A stretch of DNA of 24,000 nt from Senegalia massiliensis (GTDB lineage Bacteria > Bacillota > Clostridia > Tissierellales > SIT17). Under the pieces are notes generated by a model that was not told where the DNA came from, did no database searches, and worked only from the letters and a program-made list of their open reading frames with translations. The stretch spans positions 6,374 through 30,373 of the forward strand of contig NZ_QXXA01000010.1 in the NCBI RefSeq assembly GCF_009911265.1, read 5' to 3'. Shown piece after piece: positions 5,354 to 20,635 of the stretch. Both the position numbers and the translations under genes were made by a program. Position 1 is the first letter of the stretch. Each line of letters opens with the position of its first letter.

Positions 5354-6220
5354 ATGAAAGGTATAATATTAGCAGGTGGTAAAGGGACAAGATTATACCC
5401 TATGACAAAAGCAGTATCAAAACAATTGTTACCGATTTATGATAAGCCATTAATTTATTATCCAATTTCAGTATTAATGCTAGCAGGTATTAAAGAAATA
5501 CTAATTATTTCAACCCCTGAGGATATAGGAGTTTATGAGAAATTACTTGGAGATGGGTCTACATTTGGAATTAAATTATCATACACTGTTCAAGATAGGC
5601 CAAGAGGATTGGCTGATGCTTTTATATTAGGTGAAGACTTCATAGGTGATGATAATGTTTGTTTAATTTTAGGAGACAATGTATTCTATGGACAAGACTT
5701 AACAAAAGTATTGAATAGAGCTCAAGAACATGAAGAAGGAGCTGTTATTTTTGGGTATCCTGTAAAAGATGCAAGGTCATTTGGTGTAGTTGAGTTTGAT
5801 GAAAATAGAAAGGTTGTTTCTATAGAAGAAAAGCCAGAAAAACCAAAGTCTAACTATGCAGTTCCAGGTCTTTATTTTTATGATAATAGAGTAGTTGATA
5901 TTGCTAAAAACATAAAACCATCAGCTCGTGGAGAAATAGAAATAACTGCAGTAAATAATGTATACCTAGAAGAAGGGGATTTAAATGTAATACTTCTTGG
6001 TAGAGGAATGGCATGGCTAGATACAGGAACACCGGACGGTATGCTTAAAGCTGCTGAATACGTTGAAGCTGTTCAATCAAGGCAAGGGTTTTATATAGCT
6101 TGTTTAGAGGAAATTGCATGGCGTAGAGGATTTATTAATGATGAGCAGTTTAGAGAAGTGGGAGAAGGATTGAAAATGACTGATTATGGTCAATATATTC
6201 TCACTTTATTAGAAGAATAA
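5354..6220 (+). CDS. rmlA: Glucose-1-phosphate thymidylyltransferase
   Basis: [18 protein letters not shown] nucleotidyltransferase loop, plus conserved RmlA blocks ([46 protein letters not shown]). The ORF track starts at GTG 5345, but ATG 5354 follows the AGGTGG RBS and matches canonical RmlA N-termini. Confidence 0.95.
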
Positions 6221-6248
6221 ATCAACTTAAGTTGGAGGTAGTAGAAAA

Positions 6249-7310
6249 ATGAAAACAATATTAGTTACAGGTGGAGCTGGTTTCATTGGTAGTAACTTTA
6301 TAAAAATGATATTGACAAAGTATCCTAATTATAAAATTATAAATGTAGATTCATTGACTTATGCAGGAAATTTAGAAAATTTAAAAAATGTAGATAAAAA
6401 TGATAATTATATTTTTATAAAAGCTGATATAAGAGATAGAAAAAAAATTGATGAAATATTTAGTTCTTATGACATTAACTCTGTTGTAAATTTTGCTGCA
6501 GAATCTCATGTAGATAGAAGTATCGAAGAACCTGAAATTTTTCTAACAACTAATGTAATAGGAACACAAGTATTATTAGATGTAGCTAAAGAATATTGGA
6601 AAGTCAAGCCAAAGGATAAATATAGTAAAAAGTATAAAGAGGGTGTAAAATTTTTACAAGTATCAACTGATGAAGTATATGGAGCTTTGGGTAAAACAGG
6701 GATGTTTGTAGAAAATATGCCTTTAAAACCAAATAGCCCATATTCTGCCTCTAAAGCAAGTGCAGATATGATAGTGAGATCTTATCACAAAACATATGGA
6801 ATGCCTATTAATATTACTCGTTGTAGTAATAATTATGGGCCATATCAGTTCCCAGAAAAATTAATACCACTTATGATTAATAATTGCTTAAAAGAAAAGT
6901 ACCTACCAGTTTATGGTGATGGTATGCAGATAAGAGATTGGTTACATGTCTCAGACCATTGTTCTGCAATTAATACTGTGCTTCATAATGGCAAAGAGGG
7001 AGAAGTATACAATATTGGTGGTAATAATGAAAAAGCAAATATTGAAATAGTTAAGTTGATAATTCAAGAATTAGGTAAATCAGAAGATTTAATTAAATAT
7101 GTAAAAGATAGACCAGGTCACGATAGAAGATATGCAATAGATAATAAAAAAATAACATCTGAATTAGGATGGGAACCAGAATATACATTTGATCAGGGAA
7201 TGAAAGAAACCATTCAATGGTATTTAAATAATACAGAATGGATTGAAAATATAGTATCTGGTGATTACATGAATTATTATGAAGATATGTACTTTAATAT
7301 TAATAATTAG
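6249..7310 (+). CDS. rmlB: dTDP-glucose 4,6-dehydratase
   Basis: Rossmann motif ILVTGGAGFIGSNF, catalytic STDEVYG and YSASKASADMIVRSY (Y-x3-K), and DRPGHDRRYAID near the C-terminus. GGAGG RBS upstream. Confidence 0.95.
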   Translation: MKTILVTGGAGFIGSNFIKMILTKYPNYKIINVDSLTYAGNLENLKNVDKNDNYIFIKADIRDRKKIDEIFSSYDINSVVNFAAESHVDRSIEEPEIFLTTNVIGTQVLLDVAKEYWKVKPKDKYSKKYKEGVKFLQVSTDEVYGALGKTGMFVENMPLKPNSPYSASKASADMIVRSYHKTYGMPINITRCSNNYGPYQFPEKLIPLMINNCLKEKYLPVYGDGMQIRDWLHVSDHCSAINTVLHNGKEGEVYNIGGNNEKANIEIVKLIIQELGKSEDLIKYVKDRPGHDRRYAIDNKKITSELGWEPEYTFDQGMKETIQWYLNNTEWIENIVSGDYMNYYEDMYFNINN

Positions 7311-7371
7311 TATTCATATTAATTGTTCTTAGAAATAAACTATACTAATCTTTAGATAATAGGAGTTATTC

Positions 7372-7414
7372 AAAATGTGCCAGATCAATATATTGATTTG
7401 GTACATTTTTATTT
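7372..7414 (+). terminator. Rho-independent terminator after rmlB
   Basis: AAAATGTGCCAGATCAA / TTGATTTGGTACATTTT forms a ~17-bp stem (two G-U pairs) with a 4-nt loop (7389-7392). It is followed by T-rich sequence, 62 nt after the rmlB stop. Confidence 0.7.
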
Positions 7415-7439
7415 AAATATTATATACAAATAATAATTA

Positions 7440-7468
7440 TTGAAATTATACATATGTTACTATAAAAT
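7440..7468 (+). promoter_or_regulatory. Candidate sigma-A promoter for ugd (TTGAAA-17 nt-TAAAAT)
   Basis: TTGAAA at 7440-7445 and TAAAAT at 7463-7468 with a 17-nt spacer, downstream of the rmlB terminator. Hexamer matches are common by chance in DNA this AT-rich. Confidence 0.25.
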
Positions 7469-7534
7469 ATTTATAATGTCATTTATTTAACTATTTAATA
7501 CTAATTAATGCTAAAATTTATATAGTGATAATTA

Positions 7535-7609
7535 TTAAATAGTTTATATCATGCATTTAATAGTAAATTATATTATATATTAATAGATTTTATTTAGAAA
7601 TTAATAGAT
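7535..7609 (+). repeat. Four phased TTAATAG-like motifs upstream of ugd
   Basis: TTAAATAG at 7535, and TTAATAG at 7557, 7580 and 7601 (start-to-start spacing 22, 23, 21 nt). The last two extend to a 10-nt repeat ATTAATAGAT (7579-7588, 7600-7609). Confidence 0.35.
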
Positions 7610-7648
7610 AAAAATGTGATAGTATAAAATAAAGGGAGGAACATTTAA

Positions 7649-8815
7649 ATGAAAATAACAATAGCAGGAACTGGATATGTAGGATTATCAAATGCAATAT
7701 TACTTGCTCAAAATAATGAGGTAAAAGCATTAGATAGAAATCAATGGAAAGTAGATCTAGTTAATGATAAAAAATCACCAATAGTTGATAAAGAAATCGA
7801 AGATTATTTAGTTAATAAAGATTTGAACTTATTAGCTACACTAGATGTGAAAGAAGCATATAAAGATGCTGAATATGTAATAATAGCAACACCAACAAAT
7901 TATGATCCTGAAAAAAATTACTTTGATACATCTTCAGTGGAATCAGTAATAAAGGATGTATTAGAAATAAACCCAAATGCAGTAATGGTAATAAAGTCAA
8001 CAGTACCTGTAGGGTATACTAAAGAAATAAAAGAAAAATTTAATACAGAAAATATTATCTTTTCTCCAGAATTTTTAAGAGAAGGAAAAGCATTATATGA
8101 TAATCTATATCCGTCAAGAATAATAGTTGGAGAAAGATCTGAAAGGGCTAAAAAGTTTGCAAATCTTTTAGCAGAAGGAGCAATAAAAGAGGAGATAGAT
8201 ATATTATTTACAGACTCAACAGAAGCAGAAGCTATAAAATTGTTTTCTAACACTTATCTTGCAATGAGGGTAGCATTTTTTAATGAGTTAGATACTTATG
8301 CAGAAGTTAGAGGGCTTAATACAAAGCAAATAGTAAAGGGAGTAAGTTTAGATCCTAGAATAGGAAGTCATTACAATAATCCTTCATTTGGATATGGTGG
8401 ATATTGTTTACCTAAGGATACAAAGCAGTTACTTGCAAATTACAAAGATGTACCAAATAATATAATGAGAGCAATAGTAGATGCAAATAGAACTAGAAAA
8501 GATCATATAGCAGAAATGCTTATAAAGAAAAAACCAAACATAATTGGTGTATATAGATTAACTATGAAAACTAATTCAGATAACTTTAGACAATCTGCTA
8601 TTCAAGGGATAATGAAAAGAGTAAAAGGTAAAGGAATAGAAGTGATAGTATATGAGCCAGTATTAAAAGAAAATGAGTTTTATGGTTCAAAGGTAGTGAG
8701 GGATTTAGATGAATTTAAAAAGAAATCAGATATAATAGTAACAAATAGAATGTTTGATGAATTAGAAAATGTGAGAGAAAAAGTATATACAAGAGACTTA
8801 TTTGGCAGGGATTAA
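7649..8815 (+). CDS. ugd: UDP-glucose 6-dehydrogenase
   Basis: AAGGGAGG RBS at 7632-7639. N-terminal Rossmann [10 protein letters not shown]. Catalytic-cysteine motif [15 protein letters not shown]. 388 aa with typical Ugd/TuaD/HasB blocks ([47 protein letters not shown]). Confidence 0.93.
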
Positions 8816-8832
8816 TTTCCTGCCTCTTTTTT
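8804..8832 (+). terminator. Rho-independent terminator of ugd (overlaps its stop codon)
   Basis: GGCAGG (8804-8809) / CCTGCC (8819-8824) stem with a 9-nt loop, followed by TCTTTTTT (8825-8832). Confidence 0.75.
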
Positions 8833-8838
8833 ATGTAC

Positions 8839-8866
8839 ATAAGTTCTGTATAATTACAGAACTTAT
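8839..8866. promoter_or_regulatory. Perfect 12-bp inverted repeat ATAAGTTCTGTA-TAAT-TACAGAACTTAT upstream of the PTS regulator gene (candidate operator/activator site or second hairpin)
   Basis: Arms at 8839-8850 and 8855-8866 are exact reverse complements. They lie ~30 nt upstream of a perfect TATAAT (8896-8901), which precedes the RBS and ATG of the regulator. Confidence 0.4.
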
Positions 8867-8924: not shown

Positions 8925-10730
8925 ATGAATAAAAGGCAAGTAAATTTATTGAAAAGTTTAATAATAGAAGATGAATATCTACCTATAAAGTATTTTTCAA
9001 ACAAATTAGGTATATCAGATAAAACTACATCAAAAGATTTAAAAGAAATACAAACTATTATTAACTCCACAGGTGCAAAAATAGATAAAAGAAGAGGTCT
9101 TGGTATAAAACTATATTATACATCTTCTCAACTTGATGTTCTAAATTCTAAATTAAACAAAATGAAAGTTTCTATTGGTGATGATGATTTAATCCATAGA
9201 AGAATACAAATCTTATTAAACCTCTTAATAAATACAGACAAATATACTACTATTCAAAAACTATCAGATAAATATATAGTAAGCAGAACTTCAATTAATA
9301 ATGATTTAAATGAAATGGAAGATAAGCTATCAAAATATAATCTAAAACTTTCTAAAACATTAAAAGGAACTAAAATAATTGGCAGTGAGATAAATATAAG
9401 GAAGGCTTTAGTATTTACTATTCAAGAATATGCCAAAATAAATCCAAACTATATTACAGAATACCAAAATATACGTCATGAAGAATTAAATATAAATCAA
9501 ATAAATACAATTTTAAATCATGAAACAACTTCATTTTTTGAAAATCTATTAAATCATATAGAGTCAAAACTTAAGCTGGTTATATATGAACCATATTATA
9601 CTAATTTATTAACTCATTTATTAATAATGACCAACAGAATAATGAGAGGAAATTATATATCTAGTAATTCAGAGGTAAGTGATGTTGTAATCGTTAGGAA
9701 TAATGACTTATATAATATTGCTATTTATATGATAGAAAAAATAGAAGATAAATTTAAAATCAAAGTAAGTAAAGAAGAAGTAGGTTATATTTATAAATAC
9801 TTGACATCTATAGGGTTAAGTTACGATGATATGAAGAATAAAGAGGATAAAAAACACGATATGCCTCATGTTCATTTTACAAATAATTTAATAGATATTG
9901 TATCTCAGATGTCTCATAGAAACTACAATATAAGGGTCACTCTATATGAAAGATTGTTATTACATATAAAGCCTATGTTAAATAGAGTGAAATACAATAT
10001 TCAAATAAAAAATCCATTATTAAAAGATTTTCTAAAAGAATTTAAAGAGGAATTTCTCGTAATAAAAATTGCTTGTATGTTAGTTTGCAATAAGTTAGGA
10101 ATTAATATGATTAGTGACGATGAAGTTTCATATATACTAACTTATTTTATATCTGAAGATGAAAAAATATCAGAAACTATAAAGATAAGAACATTAGTAG
10201 TTTGTCATAGTGGATATGGAACAAGTCAATTACTTTCAACTAGATTAGAAAAAGCATTTAATAATATTGAAGTAGTAGATGTAATAGCATCAAATTCCAT
10301 ATCAAATATGGATTTAATAGATATAGATTTAATTGTTACAACAGCAGATTTAAATATTGAAAAGTCATTTTTATTGGTATCTGCATTTTTAAATGAAATT
10401 GATAAGAAAAATATTAAAAATTTTATTGATAATATCTTAGAAAGTAAAAGAAAATCATTTTCTAATTATCATATAAAAAATATTGAAATAGAATCTATTG
10501 ATGATATAAGTGATATAGATGAAAAAGAATTAGTCTATATAAAAAATAATTTATATATATGCTTAATAAACTCCTTAGAAAATTTAAACATACAATATAT
10601 AACAGAAAAAGATGAAACAGGAAAACGTATTTTTGTTATAAATTATTCTGATTATAAATATCTTTCTAAGGCTTTAAGAAAGATAATAAGGGAATTTGTA
10701 ACTGAGGAGAATATAAATGAAAAACACTAA
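8925..10730 (+). CDS. PRD-domain, PTS-controlled transcriptional regulator (LicR/MtlR/ManR class: HTH - PRD - PRD - EIIB-like), lacking a fused EIIA domain
   Basis: N-terminal HTH-like region (NLLKSLIIEDEYLPIKYFSNKLGISDKTTSKDLKEI). Two PRD-like segments with conserved His (YYTNLLTHLLIMTNRI; LYERLLLHIKPMLNRV). An EIIB-like module with a phospho-Cys motif (TLVVCHSGYGTSQLL). The ORF track starts at TTG 8916, but ATG 8925, 10 nt after AAAGGA (8909-8914), is preferred. Confidence 0.85.
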   Translation: MNKRQVNLLKSLIIEDEYLPIKYFSNKLGISDKTTSKDLKEIQTIINSTGAKIDKRRGLGIKLYYTSSQLDVLNSKLNKMKVSIGDDDLIHRRIQILLNLLINTDKYTTIQKLSDKYIVSRTSINNDLNEMEDKLSKYNLKLSKTLKGTKIIGSEINIRKALVFTIQEYAKINPNYITEYQNIRHEELNINQINTILNHETTSFFENLLNHIESKLKLVIYEPYYTNLLTHLLIMTNRIMRGNYISSNSEVSDVVIVRNNDLYNIAIYMIEKIEDKFKIKVSKEEVGYIYKYLTSIGLSYDDMKNKEDKKHDMPHVHFTNNLIDIVSQMSHRNYNIRVTLYERLLLHIKPMLNRVKYNIQIKNPLLKDFLKEFKEEFLVIKIACMLVCNKLGINMISDDEVSYILTYFISEDEKISETIKIRTLVVCHSGYGTSQLLSTRLEKAFNNIEVVDVIASNSISNMDLIDIDLIVTTADLNIEKSFLLVSAFLNEIDKKNIKNFIDNILESKRKSFSNYHIKNIEIESIDDISDIDEKELVYIKNNLYICLINSLENLNIQYITEKDETGKRIFVINYSDYKYLSKALRKIIREFVTEENINEKH

Positions 10731-11175
10731 TGTAATAGATATAAATAATATTATATTTACAAATAAGTTTAGTTCTAAACAAGAAGCAATATTAAAATTA
10801 TCAGAACTACTAGTAGAATCACAAATAGTCATAGATAAACAAAAATTTATAGAAGATATATTTGAAAGAGAAAATAGAGGTTCTACATTTGTAGGTGAAA
10901 ATTTAGCAATACCTCATGGGTTTTCAAATCAGGTAAAAAAACCTTCAATTGCCATTGCAAGAGTAGATAATCCATTTCTATGGGATGAAAATGATAATAA
11001 GGTAAAACTCACAATATTATTTGCAATACCAGAAGATGATGAAATGGAAGAAGAATCTGAGGTTTTAAAGAAAATAGCAGCAGCATTAGGTGATGAAGAT
11101 TTGATAAAAGATTTATTAAATGCACATACAAAAGAAAAATTAATATATATCTTGAAAGATTATATTAATTTGTAA
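10717..11175 (+). CDS. Stand-alone PTS EIIA, mannitol/fructose/Ntr (EIIA-2) family
   Basis: 152 aa. Active-site His context GENLAIPHGFSNQV plus the downstream block KLTILFAIPEDD typical of EIIA-2. GAGGAG RBS at 10704-10709. The start overlaps the last 14 nt of the regulator gene. Confidence 0.85.
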   Translation: MKNTNVIDINNIIFTNKFSSKQEAILKLSELLVESQIVIDKQKFIEDIFERENRGSTFVGENLAIPHGFSNQVKKPSIAIARVDNPFLWDENDNKVKLTILFAIPEDDEMEEESEVLKKIAAALGDEDLIKDLLNAHTKEKLIYILKDYINL

Positions 11176-11185
11176 GGAGGATATC

Positions 11186-11761
11186 ATGGGAGCACAATCT
11201 GGAGCTTTAGCATTTCAATCTGAAAAAGTAAATATATTTAGAAGAGCAATAGCTGCCTTATTTGATATATATATTTCATCTGTTCTAGCAAATATACCAA
11301 TTTTAATTATATATAGCATAGAAACTGGAGAGACACAGATGACTAGAGATTTATCTTCACTTTCAACTCTATCTGGAATATTAGCTAGTGTTCTAGGGAT
11401 ATTAATAGTTTCTGTTTACTATATAGTAATTCCCCTATATAAATTTGATGGTCAAACTTTAATGAAAAGATTGTTAGGATTTAAAATTATAAAGACAGAT
11501 GGTACAAAATTAGATTTAAAAACTATGCTAAAAAGAGAAATATTAGGTTCTATGATTGTAGAAGGTGGATTTGTAAGTAGTGCTAATTATTTAAGACAAT
11601 TAATACTAATATTAACTGGATCCCAACTACTTTACACAGGACTATTATATACATCATTTGCAACAACAATATTATCTATTATATTTATACTATTTTCAAA
11701 AAAACAAAGAGCATTACATGATTATATTGGAAATACAAAAGTATTGAGAGGAGGTGAATAA
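11186..11761 (+). CDS. RDD-family integral membrane protein (function unknown)
   Basis: AAGGAGG RBS. N-terminal FRRAIAALFDIYISSVL (Arg/Asp of the RDD signature), several hydrophobic helices, and C-terminal QRALHDYIGNTKVL (the terminal Asp motif). Confidence 0.7.
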   Translation: MGAQSGALAFQSEKVNIFRRAIAALFDIYISSVLANIPILIIYSIETGETQMTRDLSSLSTLSGILASVLGILIVSVYYIVIPLYKFDGQTLMKRLLGFKIIKTDGTKLDLKTMLKREILGSMIVEGGFVSSANYLRQLILILTGSQLLYTGLLYTSFATTILSIIFILFSKKQRALHDYIGNTKVLRGGE

Positions 11762-11762
11762 T

Positions 11763-12086
11763 ATGAAAAAGATATATTTATTCTGTGATAATGCAATGAG
11801 TACAAGTATGATTGCAAAAAAGATGCAAGATGTTGGAGATAAACATAATTTAGACATAGAAGTAAAAGCTTATCCAGTAAGAAATTTAGAAAAAATATTA
11901 GAAGAAAAAAATCCACATTGCGTATTATTAGGACCTCAAGTTAGACATTTACTAGAGGATACAAAGAATAGAGTAAAAGACTATGACATACCAGTAGGAG
12001 TTATAGATTCAGTTGATTATGGAATGATGGATGGAGAAAAAGTATTAAAGAAAACAATATTATTAATGAAAAAATATAAAAAATAG
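11763..12086 (+). CDS. PTS EIIB, lactose/cellobiose/chitobiose family
   Basis: MKKIYLFCDNAMSTSMIAKKM carries the N-terminal phospho-Cys loop of Lac-family EIIB (~105 aa). GGAGG at 11750-11754 sits 8 nt before ATG 11763. The GTG at 11754 in the ORF track lies inside that RBS. Confidence 0.9.
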   Translation: MKKIYLFCDNAMSTSMIAKKMQDVGDKHNLDIEVKAYPVRNLEKILEEKNPHCVLLGPQVRHLLEDTKNRVKDYDIPVGVIDSVDYGMMDGEKVLKKTILLMKKYKK

Positions 12087-12097
12087 GAGGGGTATTA

Positions 12098-13444
12098 ATG
12101 TTCAACAAACTTGAAGATGTTTTAATGCCTATAGCAGACAAGCTAGGTAAAAATAAAATACTAGTGGCTATACGTGATGGATTTTTGATATCAATGCCAT
12201 TAATTATAGTAGGTTCATTATTTTTACTTATAGCAAACTTCCCAATACCTGGGTGGTCAGAATTTTGGGCAAGATTTTTTGGAGAAGGATGGGAATCTTA
12301 TTTATCTACTGTATCTAGAGCAACATTTAATATAATATCATTGCTAACAGTAATTGGTATAGGGTATTCTTATGCTAGAGAAATAGAAGCAGATAGAATA
12401 CAAGGGTCAATTGTAGCTATAGTATCTTTTATAATATTAATGCCAACTGATATAGCATATGAAGGGGTAGAAGGCCCAGCAACATTAAGTGCAATTAGCT
12501 TTTCATTTACAGGAACAAACGGAATATTCTTAGCAATGGTAGTAGGTTTATTATCTGTACAAATATTCCACTGGGTATATAAAAAAGGTTGGACAATAAA
12601 AATGCCTGAAGGTGTACCTCCAGCAGTAACAGATTCATTTGCAGCACTTATTCCAAGTGGGATAGTAATGTTATTATTCTTTTTAGTAAGAATTGGATTT
12701 GGACTTACACCTTATGAATCAGCACATAATTTCATATATACAGTATTACAAGCACCACTTATGGGAGTAGGAAATAGCTTAGGTGCACAAATAGTATATG
12801 TAGTATCTAGCTCAATATTCTGGTTCTTTGGTATAAATGGACCTGCAGTTACAAACTCAGTGTTCTCACCAATATTTAGAACATTATCAATAGAAAACTT
12901 AGCAGCATTTGAAGCAGGATTACCATTACCACATATTTATACAGGACAATTTGTAGATTTATTTCAAACATTTGGTGGTGGAGGAAGTACTCTTTCTCTA
13001 GTTATTTTAATGGTAGCAGTAGGTAAATCTCAAAGAATTAAAAAGCTTGGTAAATTGTCAATAGTACCAGGGATATTTGGAATAAATGAACCTATCATAT
13101 TTGGTTTACCAATAGTACTTAATCCAGTAATGATAATACCTTTTATAGGGGTACCACTTATGAATACAATATTGTCAGCAATAGCATTTGAAACAGGATT
13201 TTTACCATATACTAATGGAGTTGCATTACCTTGGACTACACCACTTGGTTTCTCTGGCTATCTATCAACAGGAAGCTTAAGAGCAGCAATATTCCAAGTT
13301 ATATTAGTAATACTTGGTTGTGTAGTATATTATCCATTTATAAAAGTATTAGATAAAAACTACCTAAAAGATGAACAAGCTAAACCTAGTGAAGATGAAT
13401 TAGAAGATATATCATTTGATGATTTATCTATGGAGGATCTGTAG
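12098..13444 (+). CDS. PTS EIIC permease, lactose/cellobiose/chitobiose family
   Basis: 448-aa polytopic membrane protein. Has the N-terminal LMPIADKLGKNKILVAIRDGF block and the GINEPIIFGLPIVLNP block characteristic of CelB/ChbC/LicC-type EIIC. AGGAGGGG RBS. Confidence 0.92.
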   Translation: MFNKLEDVLMPIADKLGKNKILVAIRDGFLISMPLIIVGSLFLLIANFPIPGWSEFWARFFGEGWESYLSTVSRATFNIISLLTVIGIGYSYAREIEADRIQGSIVAIVSFIILMPTDIAYEGVEGPATLSAISFSFTGTNGIFLAMVVGLLSVQIFHWVYKKGWTIKMPEGVPPAVTDSFAALIPSGIVMLLFFLVRIGFGLTPYESAHNFIYTVLQAPLMGVGNSLGAQIVYVVSSSIFWFFGINGPAVTNSVFSPIFRTLSIENLAAFEAGLPLPHIYTGQFVDLFQTFGGGGSTLSLVILMVAVGKSQRIKKLGKLSIVPGIFGINEPIIFGLPIVLNPVMIIPFIGVPLMNTILSAIAFETGFLPYTNGVALPWTTPLGFSGYLSTGSLRAAIFQVILVILGCVVYYPFIKVLDKNYLKDEQAKPSEDELEDISFDDLSMEDL

Positions 13445-13455
13445 GAGGTAATAAA

Positions 13456-13977
13456 ATGAATGTATTAATGATATTTGATCAAATACAAGCAGGTATGGGT
13501 GGAAAAGAAAAAGCAGATATAGCTCCTGGTGGAAAAAAAGGAGAAATAGGTTCAGTTCCCATGATTAAACCTCATTTAGCAGAAGTAGATGGAAAGGTAA
13601 GTGCATGCTTGTATTGTGGAGATAAATATTTTAAAGACAATCAAGAGGAATTAGAAAGAAAAATGATAGGCATGGTTAAAAAGTTAAATCCAGATGTAGT
13701 CATTTGTGGTCCAGCATATAATTATGAAGGCTATGCATATATGAGTGCAGTTTTAGCACATAAAATAAATGAAAACACTGACATACCAGGACTTGCTGCC
13801 ATGTCTAAAGAAAATCAAGATGTAATAGCTAAATATAAAGATATAGTAAACATAGTGAAAATGCCTAAAAAAGGTGGAACTGGACTTAATAAATCATTAA
13901 GTAATATATCTATATTGGCAGAAAAAATGTTCAAAAAAGAAAATATAGAACAACTAAAAAAAGACATATGCTATTAA
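13456..13977 (+). CDS. Short protein resembling only the N-terminal domain of the GrdB/PrdB reductase family (no selenocysteine region)
   Basis: GGAGG RBS. From memory of GrdB sequences, the blocks QIQAGMGGKEKADIAPG, CLYCGDKYFKDN, PDVVICGPAYNYEGY and the C-terminal KSLSNISILAEKM segment align with the first ~170 aa of GrdB-type proteins. The ORF ends at TAA with no in-frame TGA. Confidence 0.45.
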   Translation: MNVLMIFDQIQAGMGGKEKADIAPGGKKGEIGSVPMIKPHLAEVDGKVSACLYCGDKYFKDNQEELERKMIGMVKKLNPDVVICGPAYNYEGYAYMSAVLAHKINENTDIPGLAAMSKENQDVIAKYKDIVNIVKMPKKGGTGLNKSLSNISILAEKMFKKENIEQLKKDICY

Positions 13978-14013
13978 GTATATAAGGTAGTCTTATAAGA
14001 CTACCTTATATAC
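13978..14013. repeat. 36-bp perfect palindrome (intra-operon hairpin) GTATATAAGGTAGTCTTA|TAAGACTACCTTATATAC
   Basis: Checked base by base: the sequence equals its own reverse complement. It begins immediately after the TAA of the GrdB-like gene, 28 nt before the M20 peptidase start, and is not followed by a clean U-tract (TTACTTTAGC). Confidence 0.8.
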
Positions 14014-14041
14014 TTACTTTAGCTATAATGGAGGTGATTTA

Positions 14042-15166
14042 ATGGAGAAGATTTTAAACCATAATATTGATAAATATAAACAAGGATTATTACAATCAAT
14101 AATAGAAGTAGTAAATATACCAAGTGTGAAAGGTGAGGCAAAAGAAGACGCACCATTTGGAGAAAATCCTAAAAAAGCACTCTCAAAAACACTTGATATA
14201 GCAAAGGATTTAGGATTTAAAACTAAAAATATAGATAATTATATAGGATATGCAGAATATGGTGAAGGTGAAGACTATATAGGAGTATTAGGTCATTTAG
14301 ATGTAGTAGATGTAGGAGAAGGTTGGAAATCACCACCATTTAATGCTGAAATAAGAAATGAAAAGATATATGGTAGAGGAGTACTGGATAACAAAGGACC
14401 AATAATGTCAGCCCTTTTTGCACTATATGCAATAAAACAATCAAATTTAAATATAAATAAAAAAATAAGAATAATATTTGGAACAGATGAAGAAAGTGGT
14501 TTTAGTGATATTCCATATTATTTAAAATATGAAAAACCTCCTATAATGGGTTTTACACCTGATTGTAAATATCCAGTAGTATATGGGGAAAGAGGTAGAG
14601 CAAATATATTATTTACTATTAAGTATAGTGATGAAAATTATGAAGAAAAAACAAAAGAATTTTTTAACTTTATAAATGAATATATACTTTCAAGTAAAGG
14701 TAATGGAGAAAGACTTGGTATAGATTATAGTGATGAAGAATTTGGTACAATGGAGATGAAAAATTTCAAAGCTGGAATAAAAGGCTCCCATTTGACATTT
14801 CATATGAGTTTAAGCTATCCAGCTACTGTTAATATAGATAGAATATTAGAAAAAATAAAATTAAAATTAACTGAGAATATAAAATTAATATTATTATTAA
14901 ATTATAATCCAGTAAAATTTAAAAAAGAATCATTCTTAGTAAAGAGCTTACAAAAAGCATATGAAGATATTACAGGACTAGATGGTACACCTGTAACTAC
15001 AACAGGAGGAACATATGCCAAAGTAATGCCAAATATAGTACCCTTTGGCCCATCATTTCCAGGACAAAAAGGTATAGCACATAATCCAAATGAATATATG
15101 GATATAGAAGATATAGTATTAAATGCAAAGATATTTGCAAATGCAATATATAATTTAGCAAAATAA
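14042..15166 (+). CDS. M20-family metallodipeptidase (PepV/Sapep-like), cytoplasmic
   Basis: GGAGGTG RBS at 14030-14036. Metal/catalytic motifs GVLGHLDVV, RGVLDNKGP, FGTDEESG, and C-terminal TTTGGTYAK ... AHNPNEY. No N-terminal signal peptide. At 374 aa it is shorter than typical PepV, but the ORF is uninterrupted. Confidence 0.85.
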   Translation: MEKILNHNIDKYKQGLLQSIIEVVNIPSVKGEAKEDAPFGENPKKALSKTLDIAKDLGFKTKNIDNYIGYAEYGEGEDYIGVLGHLDVVDVGEGWKSPPFNAEIRNEKIYGRGVLDNKGPIMSALFALYAIKQSNLNINKKIRIIFGTDEESGFSDIPYYLKYEKPPIMGFTPDCKYPVVYGERGRANILFTIKYSDENYEEKTKEFFNFINEYILSSKGNGERLGIDYSDEEFGTMEMKNFKAGIKGSHLTFHMSLSYPATVNIDRILEKIKLKLTENIKLILLLNYNPVKFKKESFLVKSLQKAYEDITGLDGTPVTTTGGTYAKVMPNIVPFGPSFPGQKGIAHNPNEYMDIEDIVLNAKIFANAIYNLAK

Positions 15167-15189
15167 AGATAGAAAAGAGGTAAAGATAT

Positions 15190-16149
15190 ATGAGTTATGC
15201 GATTATAGCTACATGGAGAATGGCATTAGAAGGAATAGAAGAAGGAGTAAAATTATTAAAAGATAATGGCTCTTCAGCAGATGCCATAGAGAAGGCAGTG
15301 AAGATGGTGGAAGATTTTCCATACTATAAATCAGTAGGATATGGTGGACTTCCAAATGAAAATGGAGAAGTAGAATTAGATGCAGCATTTATGGACGGAG
15401 ATAGTCTATCTATAGGAGCAGTTGCAGGGATAAAAGACTTTAAAAACCCTATATCCATAGCAAGAAAATTAAGTGAACAAAAATTTAATTGTTTTCTAGT
15501 AGGAGCTGGAGCAGAAGAATATGCACATAAAAATGGATTCGAAAGAAAAAATATGCTTACAGATAGAGCAATAATTCACTATAAAAACAGATTAAAAGAA
15601 ACAGTGGAAAAGGGACTAAGTCCATATGATGGGCATGATACTGTAGGAATGGTAGCACTTGATAATAGTGATTCAATGGCTAGTGGAACATCTACATCAG
15701 GATTGTTTATGAAAAAAAGAGGTAGAACAGGAGATTCAGCTGTATCAGGTTCAGGATTTTATGTAGATAGTGAAATAGGAGGAGCAACAGCTACAGGCCT
15801 TGGAGAAGATATAATGAAAGGCTGCTCATCTTATGAAATAGTAAGATTAATGAAAGAAGGATATACTCCACAACAAGCAGCAGATAAAGCAGTATCGGAA
15901 TTAAATGATTTATTAATAAAGAGAAGAAAAAAAGCAGGAGATATATCTGTAGTATGTATAAATAACAAGGGAGAATTTGGAGTAGCTACAAATATAGAAA
16001 ACTTTTCCTTTGTAATAGCAACAGACAAAATAGAACCAATAGTATATGTATGTAAAAATAAAAATGGTAAAACAACTTATAGAGTTGCAACAGAAGAATG
16101 GTTAGAAAATTATATGAACAAAAGAACAGCACCTTTAAAATTAAAGTAA
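15190..16149 (+). CDS. Ntn-hydrolase of the asparaginase-2 family, glycosylasparaginase-like (N4-(beta-N-acetylglucosaminyl)-L-asparaginase candidate), cytoplasmic
   Basis: Autoprocessing/nucleophile motif DGHDTVGMVALD. Motif TSTSGLFMKKRGRTGDSAVSGSGFYVD ... GGATATGLGEDIM is typical of glycosylasparaginase/isoaspartyl peptidase. N-terminal ATW and YGGLPNENGEVELDAAFMDG blocks are present. The N-terminus MSYAIIATWRMALEG has no signal sequence. Confidence 0.8.
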   Translation: MSYAIIATWRMALEGIEEGVKLLKDNGSSADAIEKAVKMVEDFPYYKSVGYGGLPNENGEVELDAAFMDGDSLSIGAVAGIKDFKNPISIARKLSEQKFNCFLVGAGAEEYAHKNGFERKNMLTDRAIIHYKNRLKETVEKGLSPYDGHDTVGMVALDNSDSMASGTSTSGLFMKKRGRTGDSAVSGSGFYVDSEIGGATATGLGEDIMKGCSSYEIVRLMKEGYTPQQAADKAVSELNDLLIKRRKKAGDISVVCINNKGEFGVATNIENFSFVIATDKIEPIVYVCKNKNGKTTYRVATEEWLENYMNKRTAPLKLK

Positions 16150-16175
16150 AATAGGATAAAATATATAGAAAGACG

Positions 16176-16496
16176 GTGAATATTGTGGAAGGAATGGAAT
16201 TATTAAATTTTCAAATAATAAGCAATGTGGGAGATGCAAAATCATATTTACATCAAGCACTAAAAGCATCAAGGGAAGAAAAATTTAGTGAAGCAGAAGA
16301 ATTAATAAAAAATGCAGAAGATAGTTTAGGAAAAGCACATGAAATCCATATGGACATATTACAAAAAGAAACACAAGGGGACGATTTTAAAATCACCCTA
16401 TTATTAATGCATGCAGAAGATCAAATGATGACAACAGAACTATTAAGAGATGTAACACAAGAAATGTTACTAACTCATAAAAAATATTCAAAATAA
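16176..16496 (+). CDS. PTS EIIA, lactose/cellobiose/chitobiose family
   Basis: ~105-aa helical protein. QIISNVGDAKSYLHQAL and LLLMHAEDQMMT (active-site His context) match CelC/ChbA/LacF-type EIIA. The start is uncertain: GTG 16176, GTG 16185 or ATG 16194. Confidence 0.88.
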   Translation: MNIVEGMELLNFQIISNVGDAKSYLHQALKASREEKFSEAEELIKNAEDSLGKAHEIHMDILQKETQGDDFKITLLLMHAEDQMMTTELLRDVTQEMLLTHKKYSK

Positions 16497-16515
16497 TATA
16501 TGTTAGGAGAAGATA

Positions 16516-17262
16516 ATGAAAAAGAAAATTGAAGTATGTTGTGATAGCTTAGAGGATGTAATAATAGCTGAAAAAGCAGGAGCAGATAGAGTAGAACTTA
16601 ACAATAGTATGCATCTAGGAGGGCTTACACCTTCAATGGGTACAATAAAATTAGTATCAGAAAGATGTGTAATCTCTACTATAGTCATGGCAAGACCAAG
16701 AGGAGCAGGTTTCTGCTATAATGATTATCAATATGACACTATGGTAGCAGATATAGAAGAAATGATGAAATATAATATAGCAGGAGTAGCATTTGGCTGC
16801 TTAACAAAAAATAAAGAAATAGATATAGAAAAAAACAAAAAAATAATAGAAATATTAAAGAAGAATGATAAACAAGTAGTATTTCATAGAGCATTTGATT
16901 GTGTAGTTGATCCATATAAATCAATAGAAATATTAATAGATTTAGGAGTAGATAGAATACTTACATCTGGACTTGCATCTAAAGCAGTAGAAGGAGTAGA
17001 ACTATTAAAAGATTTGCAAAAAAAATATGGACAAAAAATAGAAATACTTGCAGGTAGTGGAGTAAATGAATCAAATGCAAAGTATATAATGGATGGAACA
17101 GGAATAAGTCAATATCATAGTTCTTGCAAAACATGGGAGATAGACCCTACAACCATAGGTAATGATGTATCATATGCATATGCTAATAGTCCTCATGAAA
17201 ATGAATATAATGTAGTAAGCTATGAAAAGGTAAAAGAACTTATAAATATTGTTAAAGAATAA
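16516..17262 (+). CDS. cutC: CutC-family TIM-barrel protein (annotated copper homeostasis protein; true function unresolved)
   Basis: AGGAG RBS. N-terminal IEVCCDSLEDVIIAEKAGADRVELNNSMHLGGLTPSMG and later VFHRAFD and ILTSG blocks are the conserved CutC signature. 248 aa. Confidence 0.88.
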   Translation: MKKKIEVCCDSLEDVIIAEKAGADRVELNNSMHLGGLTPSMGTIKLVSERCVISTIVMARPRGAGFCYNDYQYDTMVADIEEMMKYNIAGVAFGCLTKNKEIDIEKNKKIIEILKKNDKQVVFHRAFDCVVDPYKSIEILIDLGVDRILTSGLASKAVEGVELLKDLQKKYGQKIEILAGSGVNESNAKYIMDGTGISQYHSSCKTWEIDPTTIGNDVSYAYANSPHENEYNVVSYEKVKELINIVKE

Positions 17263-17334: not shown

Positions 17335-17814
17335 ATGAAAAGAAAATCTCATATGAAATGGTCATGGATAATAATAGTGAGCTTTTTTGTGTTGTCCATA
17401 ATAGATTTTAGATTTGGTATATTTGGATTTATATGCATGACTGCACCAATATATCATGCACTAAGAGGTAGGGGAAAAGTACATTGTTCACATTATTGTC
17501 CTAGAGGATCATTTTTAGGTAAATTCCTACAAAAAATAAACTTAGGTAACAATATGCCTAAATGGATGAAAACAAAAAAAGCTAAAAATATATTACTTGG
17601 AATAATGATTACATTACTTTCTATATCACTAATACATTCAGGAGGAGATTTCAACAAAATAGCATTTAGCTTATTTAGATTTATGGGAGTATCATTTATA
17701 GTAGGAATTATGATGGGAATAATATTCAAACCTCGTAGTTGGTGTCAAGTATGTCCTATGGGATATAGTACAGGATTAATAAAGAAAGTAAAAGATAATA
17801 GAAAAGCGATTTAA
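17335..17814 (+). CDS. Small polytopic membrane protein with paired Cys motifs (4Fe-4S-binding-like, NapH/Fer4_5-type)
   Basis: GGAGG RBS. Four hydrophobic segments. Motifs HCSHYCPRGS and SWCQVCPMG resemble the CxxxCP motifs of membrane 4Fe-4S-binding proteins. Has its own promoter and terminator. Confidence 0.6.
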   Translation: MKRKSHMKWSWIIIVSFFVLSIIDFRFGIFGFICMTAPIYHALRGRGKVHCSHYCPRGSFLGKFLQKINLGNNMPKWMKTKKAKNILLGIMITLLSISLIHSGGDFNKIAFSLFRFMGVSFIVGIMMGIIFKPRSWCQVCPMGYSTGLIKKVKDNRKAI

Positions 17815-17828
17815 TAAAAATTATTGGG

Positions 17829-17860
17829 CTACTTAGTAAAATAAAACTAAGTAGTTTTTT
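17829..17860 (+). terminator. Rho-independent terminator closing the catabolic block
   Basis: CTACTTAGT (17829-17837) / ACTAAGTAG (17846-17854) form a perfect 9-bp stem with an 8-nt loop, followed by TTTTTT (17855-17860). Confidence 0.8.
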
Positions 17861-18157: not shown

Positions 18158-19273
18158 ATGAAAGAAAAAATTTGGCTTTCATCACCACATATGAGTGATG
18201 AAGGATATGAAAAAGAATACATAAAAGAAGCATTTGATACAAATTGGATAGCACCACTTGGAACAAATGTAAATGAATTTGAAAAGGAATTAGCAGGTAA
18301 AGTTGGAGCAAAACATGCAGCAGCATTAGTATCTGGCACATCTGCTATACATTTAGCACTTAAATCAGCTGGAGTAGAAGAAGGTGATATTGTATTTTGT
18401 CCTACCCTTACATTTTCAGCAACAGCTAATCCTATAATATATCAAAATGCAAAACCGGTATTTATAGATAGTAATTATGAAACTTGGAATATGGATCCAA
18501 AAGCTTTGGAACAAGCATTTGAAAAATATCCAGAAGTTAAATCAGTTATAATAGTTCATCTATATGGGTTATCATCTGATATGGATAAGATAATGGAAAT
18601 CTGCAATAAACATAATGTAGTAGTAATAGAAGATGCAGCAGAATCTTTAGGTACATATTATAAAGGAAGACATACTGGAACATTTGGTGAGTTTGGAGTG
18701 TTCTCTTTTAATGGAAATAAGATTATCACCACATCAGGTGGAGGCATGCTTGTTTCCAATGATGAACAGAAAATTAAGAAAGTTAGATTCTGGTCTACTC
18801 AGTCTAGAGATGCAGCAAGGCATTACCAGCATAGCGAGTTAGGGTTCAATTACCGTATGAGTAATGTGGTTGCTGGGATTGGAAGAGGGCAGCTTAAGGT
18901 ATTAGACAGAAGAGTAGCTAAGAAAAAATATATATTTGAGTTTTATAAGAGGGAGTTAAGTTCATTAGATGGTATAGAATTTATGCCGATCAACGACTGG
19001 AATGAACCGAACTACTGGTTGAGTGTGATCACATTAAAAGGTTCAGTAAGACCTCTTGATGTTATGGAAGCATTGGAGAAAGAGAACATTGAATCAAGAC
19101 CCGTATGGAAGCCAATGCATATGCAGCCATTCTTCGCTGAGTATGATTATGTTGGTGGGGATGTGAGTGAGAAGTTATTTGAAAATGGTGTGTGCTTGCC
19201 ATCTGATACGAAGATGATGGATGATGATCTTGAGAGAATATGTTCAATTATAAAGGGACTGTGGTCTAAATAA
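18158..19273 (+). CDS. PLP-dependent UDP-4-keto-6-deoxy-HexNAc 4-aminotransferase, EpsN/PglE-like (DegT family)
   Basis: The N-terminus IWLSSPHMSDEGYEKEYIKEAFDTNWIAPLGTNVNEFEKELAGKVG closely parallels B. subtilis EpsN as I recall it. Schiff-base Lys context FSFNGNKIITTSGGGML, and the block FNYRMSNVVAGIGRGQL. Confidence 0.88.
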   Translation: MKEKIWLSSPHMSDEGYEKEYIKEAFDTNWIAPLGTNVNEFEKELAGKVGAKHAAALVSGTSAIHLALKSAGVEEGDIVFCPTLTFSATANPIIYQNAKPVFIDSNYETWNMDPKALEQAFEKYPEVKSVIIVHLYGLSSDMDKIMEICNKHNVVVIEDAAESLGTYYKGRHTGTFGEFGVFSFNGNKIITTSGGGMLVSNDEQKIKKVRFWSTQSRDAARHYQHSELGFNYRMSNVVAGIGRGQLKVLDRRVAKKKYIFEFYKRELSSLDGIEFMPINDWNEPNYWLSVITLKGSVRPLDVMEALEKENIESRPVWKPMHMQPFFAEYDYVGGDVSEKLFENGVCLPSDTKMMDDDLERICSIIKGLWSK

Positions 19274-19290
19274 GAAGTAGGTGCTGATAA

Positions 19291-19947
19291 ATGCAGAGTG
19301 AAGTGAAGGAAGAAGCGAAAGTGAATAAAGGTATATACAGAAGACTAGTCAAAAGACCAATGGACTTGATATTGTCTTTGATGGCAATTATCTTTTTAAG
19401 TCCTGTTCTTATAATTGTTGCAATTCTTGTTAGGCTTAAGCTCGGTAGTCCTGTGCTGTTTAAGCAGAAAAGACCTGGACTTAATGAGAAGATCTTTACT
19501 ATGTATAAGTTTAGAACAATGACGGATGAGAAGGATGAGAATGGTGAGCTGCTTCCAGATAGTGTTAGATTAACAAAGTTTGGTAGGATGTTAAGGTCTA
19601 CTTCTTTAGATGAACTTCCGGAGTTGTTCAATATTCTTAAAGGGGATATGAGTATAGTAGGACCAAGGCCTTTACTCATTCAATACTTGGAACTCTACAA
19701 TGATTATCAGAAGATAAGACATGAAGTGAGACCTGGTCTTTCAGGACATGCTCAAGTCAATGGACGTAATGCCATTAGCTGGGAAGATAAGTTTAATCTT
19801 GATGTTGAGTATGTTGACAGCGTGAGTTTTAAAGGCGATTGGAAAATTATATTTCTTACTATAAAAAAAGTATTTGTTAAGGAAGGTATCAGTTCAGATA
19901 CATCGGTTACGATGGAGCCGTTTAGAGGAAGTAAGGTAGACAGTTAA
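19291..19947 (+). CDS. Small monotopic phosphoglycosyl transferase (initiating undecaprenyl-phosphate sugar-phosphate transferase; EpsL/PglC/WcfS-like)
   Basis: Single N-terminal hydrophobic helix (MDLILSLMAIIFLSPVLIIVAILV), then GSPVLFKQKRPG, YKFRTMT, and LDELPELFNILKGDMSIVGPRP. These are canonical bacterial sugar transferase motifs. Confidence 0.92.
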   Translation: MQSEVKEEAKVNKGIYRRLVKRPMDLILSLMAIIFLSPVLIIVAILVRLKLGSPVLFKQKRPGLNEKIFTMYKFRTMTDEKDENGELLPDSVRLTKFGRMLRSTSLDELPELFNILKGDMSIVGPRPLLIQYLELYNDYQKIRHEVRPGLSGHAQVNGRNAISWEDKFNLDVEYVDSVSFKGDWKIIFLTIKKVFVKEGISSDTSVTMEPFRGSKVDS

Positions 19948-20011
19948 AATATTGAGATATTAGACTTACTGCAATTATAAATTTATTACTTCAGAGAGGA
20001 ATGTACTGTTC

Positions 20012-20635
20012 ATGAAAGACAAATTGATTATTATTGGTGCCAGTGGACATGGTAAGGTTGTCGCTGACATCGCAATAAAAATGAATAAATGGCAAAGTAT
20101 CGTATTCCTCGATGATGACGAGTCTATTAAAACATCTTTGGGATTGGAAATCATTGGCAAGACTGAGGATGCTTTTACCTATAAGTATGAAGCTGATTTT
20201 TTTGTTGCTATAGGTAATAATGAGATAAGAGAGAATATTCAAGAGAAATTTATTGAGAGAGGATTAAATGTAGTTAGTTTAATTCATCCTGAAGCTGTCA
20301 TCGGTACTGATGTAGAAATTGATATTGGAACTGCTATTATGGGGGGAACTGTGATCAATAATTCTACTAAAATTGGTAAGGGTTGTATCGTCAATACAAG
20401 TGCCAGTTTGGACCATGACAATGCAATTGAAGATTATGTGCACATATCCCCTGGAGTTAGGACTGCGGGAAGTTTAAGCATAGGCAAAGGTACATGGTTA
20501 GGGATAGGAAGTATTTTAAGCAATAACGTAAAGATCTGTAGTGGTTGCAAAGTAGGTGCAGGGGCTGTGGTAGTTAAGGATATTACTGAACCTGGGACAT
20601 ATGTAGGGGTTCCGGTGAGGAGAGTTGATAGATGA
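20012..20635 (+). CDS. Sugar N-acetyltransferase, NeuD/PglD/EpsM family (left-handed beta-helix)
   Basis: N-terminal Rossmann-like LIIIGASGHGKVVADIA, followed by hexapeptide-repeat segments (IGKGCIVNTSASLDHD; IGKGTWLGIGSILSNNVKICSGCKVGAGAVV). Sits beside the aminotransferase and sugar transferase. Confidence 0.88.
   Translation: MKDKLIIIGASGHGKVVADIAIKMNKWQSIVFLDDDESIKTSLGLEIIGKTEDAFTYKYEADFFVAIGNNEIRENIQEKFIERGLNVVSLIHPEAVIGTDVEIDIGTAIMGGTVINNSTKIGKGCIVNTSASLDHDNAIEDYVHISPGVRTAGSLSIGKGTWLGIGSILSNNVKICSGCKVGAGAVVVKDITEPGTYVGVPVRRVDR

Follow-up and report, generated by a model that had tools for sequence, protein, structure and literature searches.

A conserved ega-type operon of Senegalia massiliensis that probably serves the catabolism of N-acetylglucosaminyl-asparagine

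Introduction

What does a sugar phosphotransferase system (PTS) of the Lac/Cel family import when the operon encoding it contains no glycosidase? This question is raised by a 24 kb stretch of DNA from the gut bacterium Senegalia massiliensis, in the following called the window, in which positions 8925–17262 hold an operon for a PTS, a transcriptional regulator, an M20 peptidase, an asparaginase-2 type N-terminal nucleophile (Ntn) hydrolase and a CutC-family protein. An initial annotation had described this region as a ten-gene co-directional unit, and all of its open reading frames and their domains were recovered with Pfam and NCBIfam profiles. It had also pointed to missing enzymes, and indeed no phospho-glycosidase (GH1/GH4), ChbG deacetylase or sugar kinase was found anywhere in the 24 kb. 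The known Lac-family operons for chitobiose and cellobiose (chb of Escherichia coli, lic of Bacillus subtilis with its activator LicR, and the Bacillus cereus system of ChbC, structure 3QNQ) share with the window the EIIA/EIIB/EIIC architecture, a LicR-type activator containing PRD domains and, as the presumed substrate, a beta-linked conjugate of N-acetylglucosamine (GlcNAc) or glucose. However, they carry a 6-phospho-beta-glycosidase or a ChbG deacetylase, whereas the bond-breaking enzyme predicted from the window is an amidase, a glycosylasparaginase (AGA).

The present analysis establishes the gene content of the operon, the homology of its products, their catalytic motifs and the conservation of the cluster. 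The operon is a further, uncharacterised case of the ega-type system known from enterococci, with a different regulator and extra conserved accessory genes, and we consider it likely that it forms a catabolic unit for N-acetylglucosaminyl-asparagine (GlcNAc-Asn). This compound is the remnant left after endo-beta-N-acetylglucosaminidases and proteases have trimmed N-glycoproteins.

Results

The Ntn hydrolase is predicted to be a cytoplasmic glycosylasparaginase

The best match of the Ntn hydrolase in the Protein Data Bank (PDB) was the glycosylasparaginase of Flavobacterium/Elizabethkingia (1.6e-63 over the full length), whereas isoaspartyl peptidases/L-asparaginases reached only about 5e-37 and taspase about 1e-18. 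The autoprocessing site consists of H149-D150-T151, followed by RGRTGDSAVSGSGFY, and structures of the beta-chain align from residue 151. The residues for aspartate binding and the oxyanion hole (T169, R179, D182, T202 and G203) correspond to T170, R180, D183, T203 and G204 of the Flavobacterium enzyme. Of the two aromatic residues of the latter which we take to stack against the sugar, W11 and F13, the first is conserved as W9. Furthermore, the protein is 58–61% identical to the AGAs of loci from Enterococcus gilvus, the Enterococcus thailandicus type, Enterococcus gallinarum and Latilactobacillus curvatus, and an identical protein from S. massiliensis, of the Clostridiaceae, is named N(4)-(beta-N-acetylglucosaminyl)-L-asparaginase at NCBI. 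Together, this makes a glycosylasparaginase (EC 3.5.1.26) a prediction that is well supported by homology.

In the alignment, residue 5 of the protein falls on residue 7 of the mature form of the Flavobacterium enzyme, and neither the AGA nor the M20 peptidase has a hydrophobic N-terminus or leader. Since the AGA starts where the mature Flavobacterium enzyme starts and lacks such a leader, it is predicted to be cytoplasmic. Both the nucleophile motif and the lack of signal peptides on the two hydrolases had been noted in the initial annotation and were found again here. The glycosylasparaginase of Flavobacterium/Elizabethkingia and human AGA share with the window protein the Ntn fold, H-D-T autoproteolysis, the Thr nucleophile and the Arg/Asp/Thr-Gly residues that bind aspartate, but they are secreted or lysosomal and have signal sequences, whereas the window AGA would reside in the cytoplasm and meet a phosphorylated substrate. 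The earlier statement that characterised glycosylasparaginases are lysosomal or periplasmic was too narrow, as the cytoplasmic enzymes AsnA2 of Lacticaseibacillus casei and EgaG of Enterococcus faecalis are known. AsnA2 lacks a signal peptide and is active on GlcNAc-Asn as well as on 6-O-fucosylated GlcNAc-Asn (PMC6960285).

The operon resembles the enterococcal ega locus

The ega locus of E. faecalis and its PTS for GlcNAc-L-Asn were reportedly characterised by Combret et al. 2023 (Res Microbiol 2023/2024, PMID 37977353), a work cited in two further papers. According to these, E. faecalis takes up GlcNAc-L-Asn via a PTS, as was experimentally shown for ega (PMC11976118, PMC11160706). One of them describes the "enterococcal glycosylasparaginase locus (ega)" as comprising EgaG (OG1RF_10935), EIIB and EIIC of a lactose/cellobiose PTS and, under a separate promoter, a GntR regulator and a dipeptidase (OG1RF_10933/34), together with a gene for a GrdB-type oxidoreductase that is a pseudogene in strain OG1RF and intact in other strains (PMC11160706). 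The window shares with ega the glycosylasparaginase, Lac/Cel-type EIIB and EIIC, a GrdB-like gene, an M20 dipeptidase and the lack of a glycosidase. The two differ in gene order, in the presence of CutC and an RDD-family protein in the window and their absence from ega, and in the source of EIIA, which E. faecalis borrows from its cellobiose system (CelA1), whereas the operon of the window encodes its own Lac-type EIIA.

Comparison loci of Lactobacillales were taken from a plasmid/chromid collection and from contig look-ups, and they represent other enterococci and Latilactobacillus. The E. gilvus locus on pCR1A has the order GntR (LSA1692 subfamily)-Sapep-AGA-EIIB-EIIC-EIIA, the E. thailandicus-type chromosome GntR-M20-AGA-EIIB-EIIC, E. 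gallinarum GntR-M20-AGA-EIIC-GrdB-like-M42-M42 and L. curvatus AGA-GntR-GrdB-like-EIIC-Sapep. The EIIC of the window matches the chitobiose EIIC of B. cereus (3QNQ) with 7e-104 and 42% identity, but it is 50–61% identical to the EIICs of these enterococcal and Latilactobacillus loci and only 35–36% identical to Lac-family paralogues in the fetched loci; on these grounds it is closer to the ega-type permeases. Its EIIB is 46–49% identical to those of the enterococcal-type loci.

A second characterised system that links a cytoplasmic AGA to an M20 peptidase is the alf-2 cluster of Lacticaseibacillus casei/paracasei BL23 (Becerra et al. 2020, PMC6960285), which likewise breaks down a glyco-amino acid of the N-glycan core. 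There, asnA2 adjoins pepV, and the authors propose trimming of glycopeptides by PepV (PMC6960285). Uptake in alf-2 proceeds through AlfH, a permease of the major facilitator superfamily, and not a PTS; the substrate is fucosyl-alpha-1,6-GlcNAc-Asn and requires the fucosidase AlfC. The cluster further includes the ROK kinase SugK, which phosphorylates the released GlcNAc, an aspartate decarboxylase homologue and a GntR regulator. No member of the AlfH, alpha-L-fucosidase AlfC or SugK families was found in the window.

Import of a glyco-asparagine by a Lac-family PTS and its cleavage by a cytoplasmic AGA, as the initial annotation had suggested, is thus supported by homology and by the ega experiments. 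Its implied novelty does not hold: because the same PTS-coupled route has already been shown by experiment in E. faecalis (PMC11976118, PMC11160706), it is not a new pathway.

The gene cluster is conserved across classes of Firmicutes

For a neighbourhood scan with one genome per species, 260 loci encoding a relative of the AGA were collected, and the best 80 (62–87% identity) were examined; genes within 8 kb of the AGA gene and on the same strand were counted as neighbours. EIIB was present in 48 of the 80 loci, EIIC and CutC in 46 each, EIIA(Lac) in 45, M20 in 44, the GrdB-like gene in 37, the PRD regulator in 20 and the RDD protein in 18. Co-occurrence of the asparaginase, M20 and Lac-type EIIC, which the initial annotation had proposed to survey, is therefore a recurrent trait, and this recurrence argues that the association is real and old and no chance arrangement. 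Dozens of Firmicutes genomes keep the cluster, those of Clostridia, Tissierellia and Erysipelotrichia as well as of some Bacilli, and the AGA-PTS-M20 clusters among the 80 loci contained no glycosidase in any of these classes.

Two architectures were distinguished. The first, EIIA-EIIB-EIIC-GrdB-like-AGA-M20-CutC, occurs in Clostridioides difficile, Paraclostridium, Romboutsia, Terrisporobacter, Catenibacterium, Sharpea and Ileibacterium, and in Tissierellia it is arranged in the gene order of the window. The second, regulator-EIIA-AGA-EIIC-CutC-EIIB, was found in Tepidanaerobacter, Thermosediminibacter, Peribacillus, Shimazuella and Geosporobacter. Two sets of EIIB-EIIC genes flank the catabolic genes in loci L002 and L005 (at about 4140–5800 and 11560–13300), and one scaffold (LN874948.1) carries both L006 and L019, that is, two AGA paralogues 0.8 Mb apart in one genome. 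In a variant from Tissierella (L072, 4176–10933), CutC-AGA is accompanied by a Na:alanine-family symporter, an M19 dipeptidase and a YcbB-type two-component system and there is no PTS; judged by its genes, this variant would take up the same substrate, or a related one, without phosphorylating it.

The M20 peptidase belongs to the PepV/Sapep lineage

In the M20 peptidase, H85, D116, E150/E151, D174 and H347 correspond to the metal ligands and catalytic glutamate of PepV (H87, D119, E153/E154, D177 and H439). It is 36–39% identical to the Sapep-type M20s of the enterococcal and Latilactobacillus loci and has in common with them the C-terminal motif DGTPVTTTGxTYA...FGPSFPGQKGIAHN. Judged by these residues and motifs, its membership in the PepV/Sapep lineage is clear; whether it recognises its substrate in the manner of PepV is not. 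With 374 amino acids it is missing about 60–90 residues of the lid, a deletion common to most clostridial-type loci (median 374 amino acids, n = 44 loci) from which a dimer like that of DapE would be predicted. Longer forms occur in Lactobacillales (431–440 amino acids; 431–433 in the ega type) and in Cetobacterium and Paraclostridium (456–472 amino acids).

A proposed route for GlcNAc-Asn

We infer the following scheme as to which substrate S. massiliensis uses, where that substrate is phosphorylated, what the M20 peptidase contributes and how the operon is regulated. EIIC, phosphorylated EIIB and the dedicated EIIA(Lac) would import GlcNAc-Asn and phosphorylate its sugar, presumably at O6 by analogy with other substrates of Lac-family PTS. 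The AGA, after cutting itself between D150 and T151, would hydrolyse the N-glycosidic amide to L-aspartate and (6-phospho-)N-acetylglucosaminylamine. As AsnA2 tolerates a fucose as 6-O substituent, a 6-phosphate on the substrate of the AGA is plausible. The glycosylamine would then lose ammonia to give GlcNAc-6-phosphate, which could enter metabolism through NagA and NagB encoded elsewhere in the genome. The M20 peptidase would probably act on dipeptides containing Asn(GlcNAc) and free the alpha-amino or the alpha-carboxyl group for the AGA. Transcription may be coupled to the phosphorylation state of the PTS and to substrate availability by the PRD activator together with a separately encoded EIIA(Mtl), and a conserved RNA stem-loop would separate the transport half from the catabolic half of the operon. 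The operon further encodes three conserved accessory proteins, namely CutC, the GrdB-like protein and an RDD protein.

Several observations weigh against this assignment. The EIIC retains its 42% identity to the chitobiose permease, and chitobiose or longer glycosyl-asparagines are possible substrates. In the AGA, a methionine (M11) stands in the place of Phe13, one of the pair of residues that stack against the sugar in the Flavobacterium enzyme. The M20 peptidase has no counterpart of PepV residues 202–290, which form part of the lid, and PepV Arg350 aligns with a serine; N217, H269 and R350 of PepV are the lid-domain residues that bind the substrate carboxylate. In view of the lost lid and the serine, the substrate of the M20 peptidase may differ from that of PepV. 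Moreover, pepV is dispensable in L. casei, where the mutant grows normally (PMC6960285), so the dipeptidase trimming step remains unproven. Where the characterised ega system has a GntR regulator of the LSA1692 subfamily, the window has a PRD activator of the LicR/MtlR type, its EIIA(Mtl) being encoded separately. NagA and NagB are not encoded in the window. Finally, orthology to the ega genes of E. faecalis (OG1RF_10933–10939) is deduced via congeners with the published gene order.

Some of these points would suit a glyco-amino-acid system with another substrate, for instance chitobiosyl-Asn, di- or tripeptides containing Asn(GlcNAc), 6-substituted GlcNAc-Asn, or Glc-Asn from bacterial N-glucosylated proteins, in which case the shortened M20, together with CutC and the GrdB-like protein, would contribute chemistry not needed in E. 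faecalis. Clostridial-type loci do carry extras that are missing in enterococci (CutC and RDD, as counted above) as well as a structurally altered M20, the two M42 aminopeptidases of E. gallinarum and the M19 dipeptidase of the Tissierella variant point to peptide-bearing substrates, and AsnA2 accepts a 6-O-fucosylated substrate (PMC6960285). Yet the window encodes no additional glycosidase for a second sugar and its core proteins have their homologues in the GlcNAc-Asn system, and we hold this alternative to be unlikely. Still less probable is a plain beta-glucoside PTS for cellobiose or chitobiose with a phospho-glycosidase elsewhere, next to an unrelated co-transcribed AGA-M20 pair for salvage of isoaspartyl peptides or asparagine: while the EIIC, besides its resemblance to the chitobiose permease, scores 420 bits on the NCBIfam cellobiose EIIC model, just below the cut-off of 434, and while the Asp-binding residues of the AGA are common to isoaspartyl peptidases and its sole NCBIfam match is a beta-aspartyl-peptidase model (118 bits against a cut-off of 567), this reading is made very improbable by the far better AGA match to glycosylasparaginases, by the cross-class conservation of AGA-PTS-M20 clusters that lack glycosidases, and by the use of GlcNAc-Asn shown for the homologous enterococcal system. 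Degradation of GlcNAc-Asn is the reading that we retain.

Layout and boundaries of the operon

The features of the operon and its borders are compiled in Table 1. The ten genes are tightly spaced, with gaps of −14 to +26 nucleotides and a single exception of 64 nucleotides that contains a palindrome, and a Shine-Dalgarno sequence precedes each of them. The inverted repeat in front of the regulator gene is, on the basis of its sequence and position, a candidate promoter/operator or autoregulatory site for this gene. No terminator separates CutC from the following gene for a small membrane protein with a Fer4_5 motif; nevertheless, that gene was not found in any of the 80 related loci, and its membership in the operon is therefore doubtful.

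Table 1 Features of the S. massiliensis operon and its boundaries. Positions refer to the window.
Feature	Positions	Strand	Details
Intrinsic-terminator-like hairpin with T-run	8804–8824	+	Ends upstream UDP-glucose dehydrogenase gene; upstream boundary of the unit
Perfect inverted repeat, 12+12 nt (ATAAGTTCTGTA-TAAT-TACAGAACTTAT)	8839–8866	+	Overlaps TGTATAAT extended −10-like box; just 5' of regulator gene
LicR/MtlR-type PRD activator	8925–10730	+	HTH_Mga, Mga HTH, two PRD, EIIB(Gat)-like PTS_IIB; tail of about 100 amino acids without assigned domain
Stand-alone PTS_EIIA_2, EIIA (Mtl/Fru type)	10717–11175	+	His67; 14-nt overlap with regulator gene
RDD-family membrane protein	11186–11761	+	About three hydrophobic segments; Pfam
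EIIB Lac/Cel, PTS_IIB	11754–12086	+	Phosphorylatable Cys in LFCDNAMSTS; likelier start is ATG at 11763
EIIC permease Lac/Cel, PTS_EIIC	12098–13444	+	Pfam/NCBIfam
GrdB-N-domain-like protein, 173 amino acids	13456–13977	+	NF041545 GrdB_like_no_Se, NCBIfam 250 bits; without selenocysteine
RNA stem-loop (predicted), perfect 21+21 nt palindrome	13975–14016	+	No T-tract; followed by TATAAT (14024–14029) and ribosome-binding site
Peptidase_M20, Sapep/PepV lineage, 374 amino acids	14042–15166	+	Lid shortened; Pfam/NCBIfam
Asparaginase_2 Ntn hydrolase, predicted glycosylasparaginase (AGA)	15190–16149	+	H149-D150-T151; Pfam, structure-sequence matches
EIIA Lac/Cel, PTS_IIA	16176–16496	+	His79 in LLMHAED; dedicated to the transporter; Pfam/NCBIfam
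CutC-family TIM-barrel protein	16516–17262	+	Pfam 1.1e-60
Small membrane protein, Fer4_5 (4Fe-4S-binding)	17335–17814	+	CxxC-like motifs; after CutC
Terminator-like hairpin with T-run	17826–17857	+	Downstream boundary

On both sides (1–8815 and 18158–24000) the operon is flanked by a surface-polysaccharide biosynthesis cluster encoding a flippase, ATP-grasp, pyruvyl transferase, DegT, RmlA/RmlB-like, UDP-glucose dehydrogenase, second DegT, PglC-like transferase, PglD-like acetyltransferase, GT1 and CapD-like proteins. In none of the 80 related loci did the UDP-glucose dehydrogenase and DegT genes of the flanks lie beside the cluster, which makes the insertion site of the operon look lineage-specific.

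The regulator, its probable detached EIIA domain and the RDD protein

All domains of a LicR/MtlR-type activator were found in the window, the EIIA(Mtl)-like one on a separate, overlapping gene. Residues 1–497 of the regulator align with the regulator of the Catenibacterium cluster. In Catenibacterium and Terrisporobacter, PTS_EIIA_2 is fused to the C-terminus of the regulator (630–632 amino acids), and Schnuerera and the window encode it separately, in a gene overlapping or adjoining that of the regulator (compared regions: window 8925–11175; L048 4828–6726; L024 3258–5150; L001 3641–5915). EIIA classes of the PTS are family-specific, and a Lac-type EIIA is already encoded in the operon; the stand-alone EIIA(Mtl) is therefore, as far as domain comparison can tell, most likely a regulatory domain of the PRD activator that is encoded apart from it, and not a component of transport. 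This qualifies the label EIIA (Mtl type) that the initial annotation had given it.

An RDD protein lies directly 5' of the PTS genes in 18 of the 80 loci, which fall into two groups (Tissierellia/Clostridia and Erysipelotrichia). A role as accessory membrane subunit is conceivable. The cellodextrin PTS of E. faecalis likewise requires small proteins, CelGHI, that have no assigned function (PMC11976118).

The GrdB-like protein and the stem-loop

The GrdB-like protein matches the N-terminal half of the selenoprotein GrdB, and an identical protein is named GrdB-related putative oxidoreductase at NCBI. Its family is small and uniform, with 330 matches of which nearly all have 172–175 amino acids; C54, C84 and the motif PKKGGxGL are invariant and the C-terminal C172 is near-invariant. 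The AlphaFold model shows an alpha/beta fold (pLDDT 97.3). There was no sequence match in the PDB, and the best Foldseek matches were CheY/flavodoxin-like proteins with E-values of 6e-3 or higher and TM-scores of about 0.5. The protein is 40–44% identical to the products of the E. gallinarum and L. curvatus genes. In these two loci the GrdB-like gene is present and no EIIB gene was seen (L093, 10359–10880; L082, 10701–11225), and the E. gilvus and E. thailandicus-type loci contain EIIB and no GrdB-like gene.

The perfect 21+21 nucleotide repeat, which the initial annotation had listed as a palindrome, is present and is better read as a conserved RNA stem-loop. Folded as RNA, it has a free energy of −30.1 kcal/mol (z = −6.9). 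In the closest relatives, too, a stem-loop stands right after the stop codon of the GrdB-like gene, with differing stem sequences and loops of 0–6 nucleotides (GrdB-like/M20 intergenic regions of L001, L003, L006, L014 and L044), and compensatory changes were found in 9 of the 17 stem pairs in an alignment of six sequences. This conservation of position together with the compensatory changes points to an element acting at the RNA level. It is probably a processing or stability element, or a partial or leaky terminator, between the transport and the catabolic halves, which parallels the two transcription units described for ega in the available accounts of E. faecalis.

CutC is the most persistent neighbour of the AGA

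The CutC protein of the operon matches human CUTC (3IWP) with 1.7e-45. CutC is the most persistent neighbour of the AGA: both architectures contain it, the gene order around it varies, and it is present in loci without a PTS as well. In Tissierella, CutC-AGA follows the M19 dipeptidase, the two-component system and the symporter, and in Holdemania AGA-CutC lies amid housekeeping genes. The pairing spans three phyla, Bacillota, Bacteroidota and Pseudomonadota, often with an overlap of 4 nucleotides (compared regions: window 16516–17262; L083 5899–7765; L084 6884–8664; L095 7048–8732; L096 5610–15478; L072 9201–10933; L079 9989–11681). In the Bacteroidota, where N-glycan genes of families GH2 and GH92 lie next to the pair, Fulvitalea axinellae has the order AGA-CutC-GH2-CBM9-like-GH92, and the genes are adjacent or overlapping in Hymenobacter sp. 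DG25B, H. tibetensis and H. volaticus, with GH92 adjoining the pair in DG25B. In the gammaproteobacterium Microbulbifer, AGA and CutC overlap by 4 nucleotides. The CutC gene of Novosphingobium is the first of an operon that also encodes a double-SIS (NagB-II-like) and an Amidohydro_1 (NagA-like) protein and that is transcribed divergently from a cluster of TonB receptor-GH92-AGA-TonB receptor. The pairing is not universal, however: in Sphingomonas and Persicobacter the two genes are widely separated or lie on separate replicons, no CutC was found near the AGA of Thermomicrobium, and CutC stands alone, with no AGA partner, in Parabacteroides, Cetobacterium and enterobacteria.

In an alignment of 17 CutCs, E6, R25, E27, R60, F66, Y68, H124, D128, T150, G152, G182 and H201 were invariant and, to judge from the alignment, look catalytic. 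The same alignment had no invariant column for the conserved cysteines proposed as Cu(I) ligands of the Shigella and human proteins, and C8/C9 are replaced by I, G, A or T in several AGA-linked CutCs. Beyond CutC structures, a CutC profile search of the PDB gave only weak matches (E 0.01–1) to phosphate-binding TIM barrels. The copper phenotype of E. coli cutC is due to the small RNA MicL within the gene and not to the protein (PMC4102768). No link between CutC and glycosylasparaginase or nag genes was reported in the searchable literature.

Release of GlcNAc and ammonia from N-acetylglucosaminylamine is usually assumed to be spontaneous. Considering the CutC-AGA pairing, the nag and GH92 neighbours, the invariant residues and the phosphate-binding TIM-barrel relatives, it may tentatively be speculated that CutC is here no copper protein but works in the cytoplasm as an enzyme of glycosyl-asparagine breakdown, with the hexosamine released by the AGA as its substrate. 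It could, for example, convert N-acetylglucosaminylamine(-6-phosphate) to GlcNAc(-6-phosphate) and ammonia, or otherwise feed NagA/NagB. We regard this as rather doubtful, since the enterococcal ega loci work without an adjacent CutC and copper-related phenotypes of CutC are still reported from other bacteria (Xylella study cited in PMC13198582).

Discussion

With this pathway, gut Firmicutes can draw both carbon and nitrogen from what finally remains of host and dietary N-glycoproteins and is otherwise indigestible, and in E. faecalis it affects infection. A richer form of the module is widespread in Clostridia, including C. difficile, in Tissierellia and in Erysipelotrichia, which extends an enterococcal trait to many gut anaerobes. 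CutC, the GrdB-like protein, the RDD protein and the lid-shortened M20 peptidase mark steps of this pathway that the published model does not explain. In particular, the cross-phylum link between CutC and glycosylasparaginase makes the long-open question of CutC function directly testable. If the tentative enzymatic role were true, it would be the first biochemical function for the CutC/CUTC family, the human protein included.

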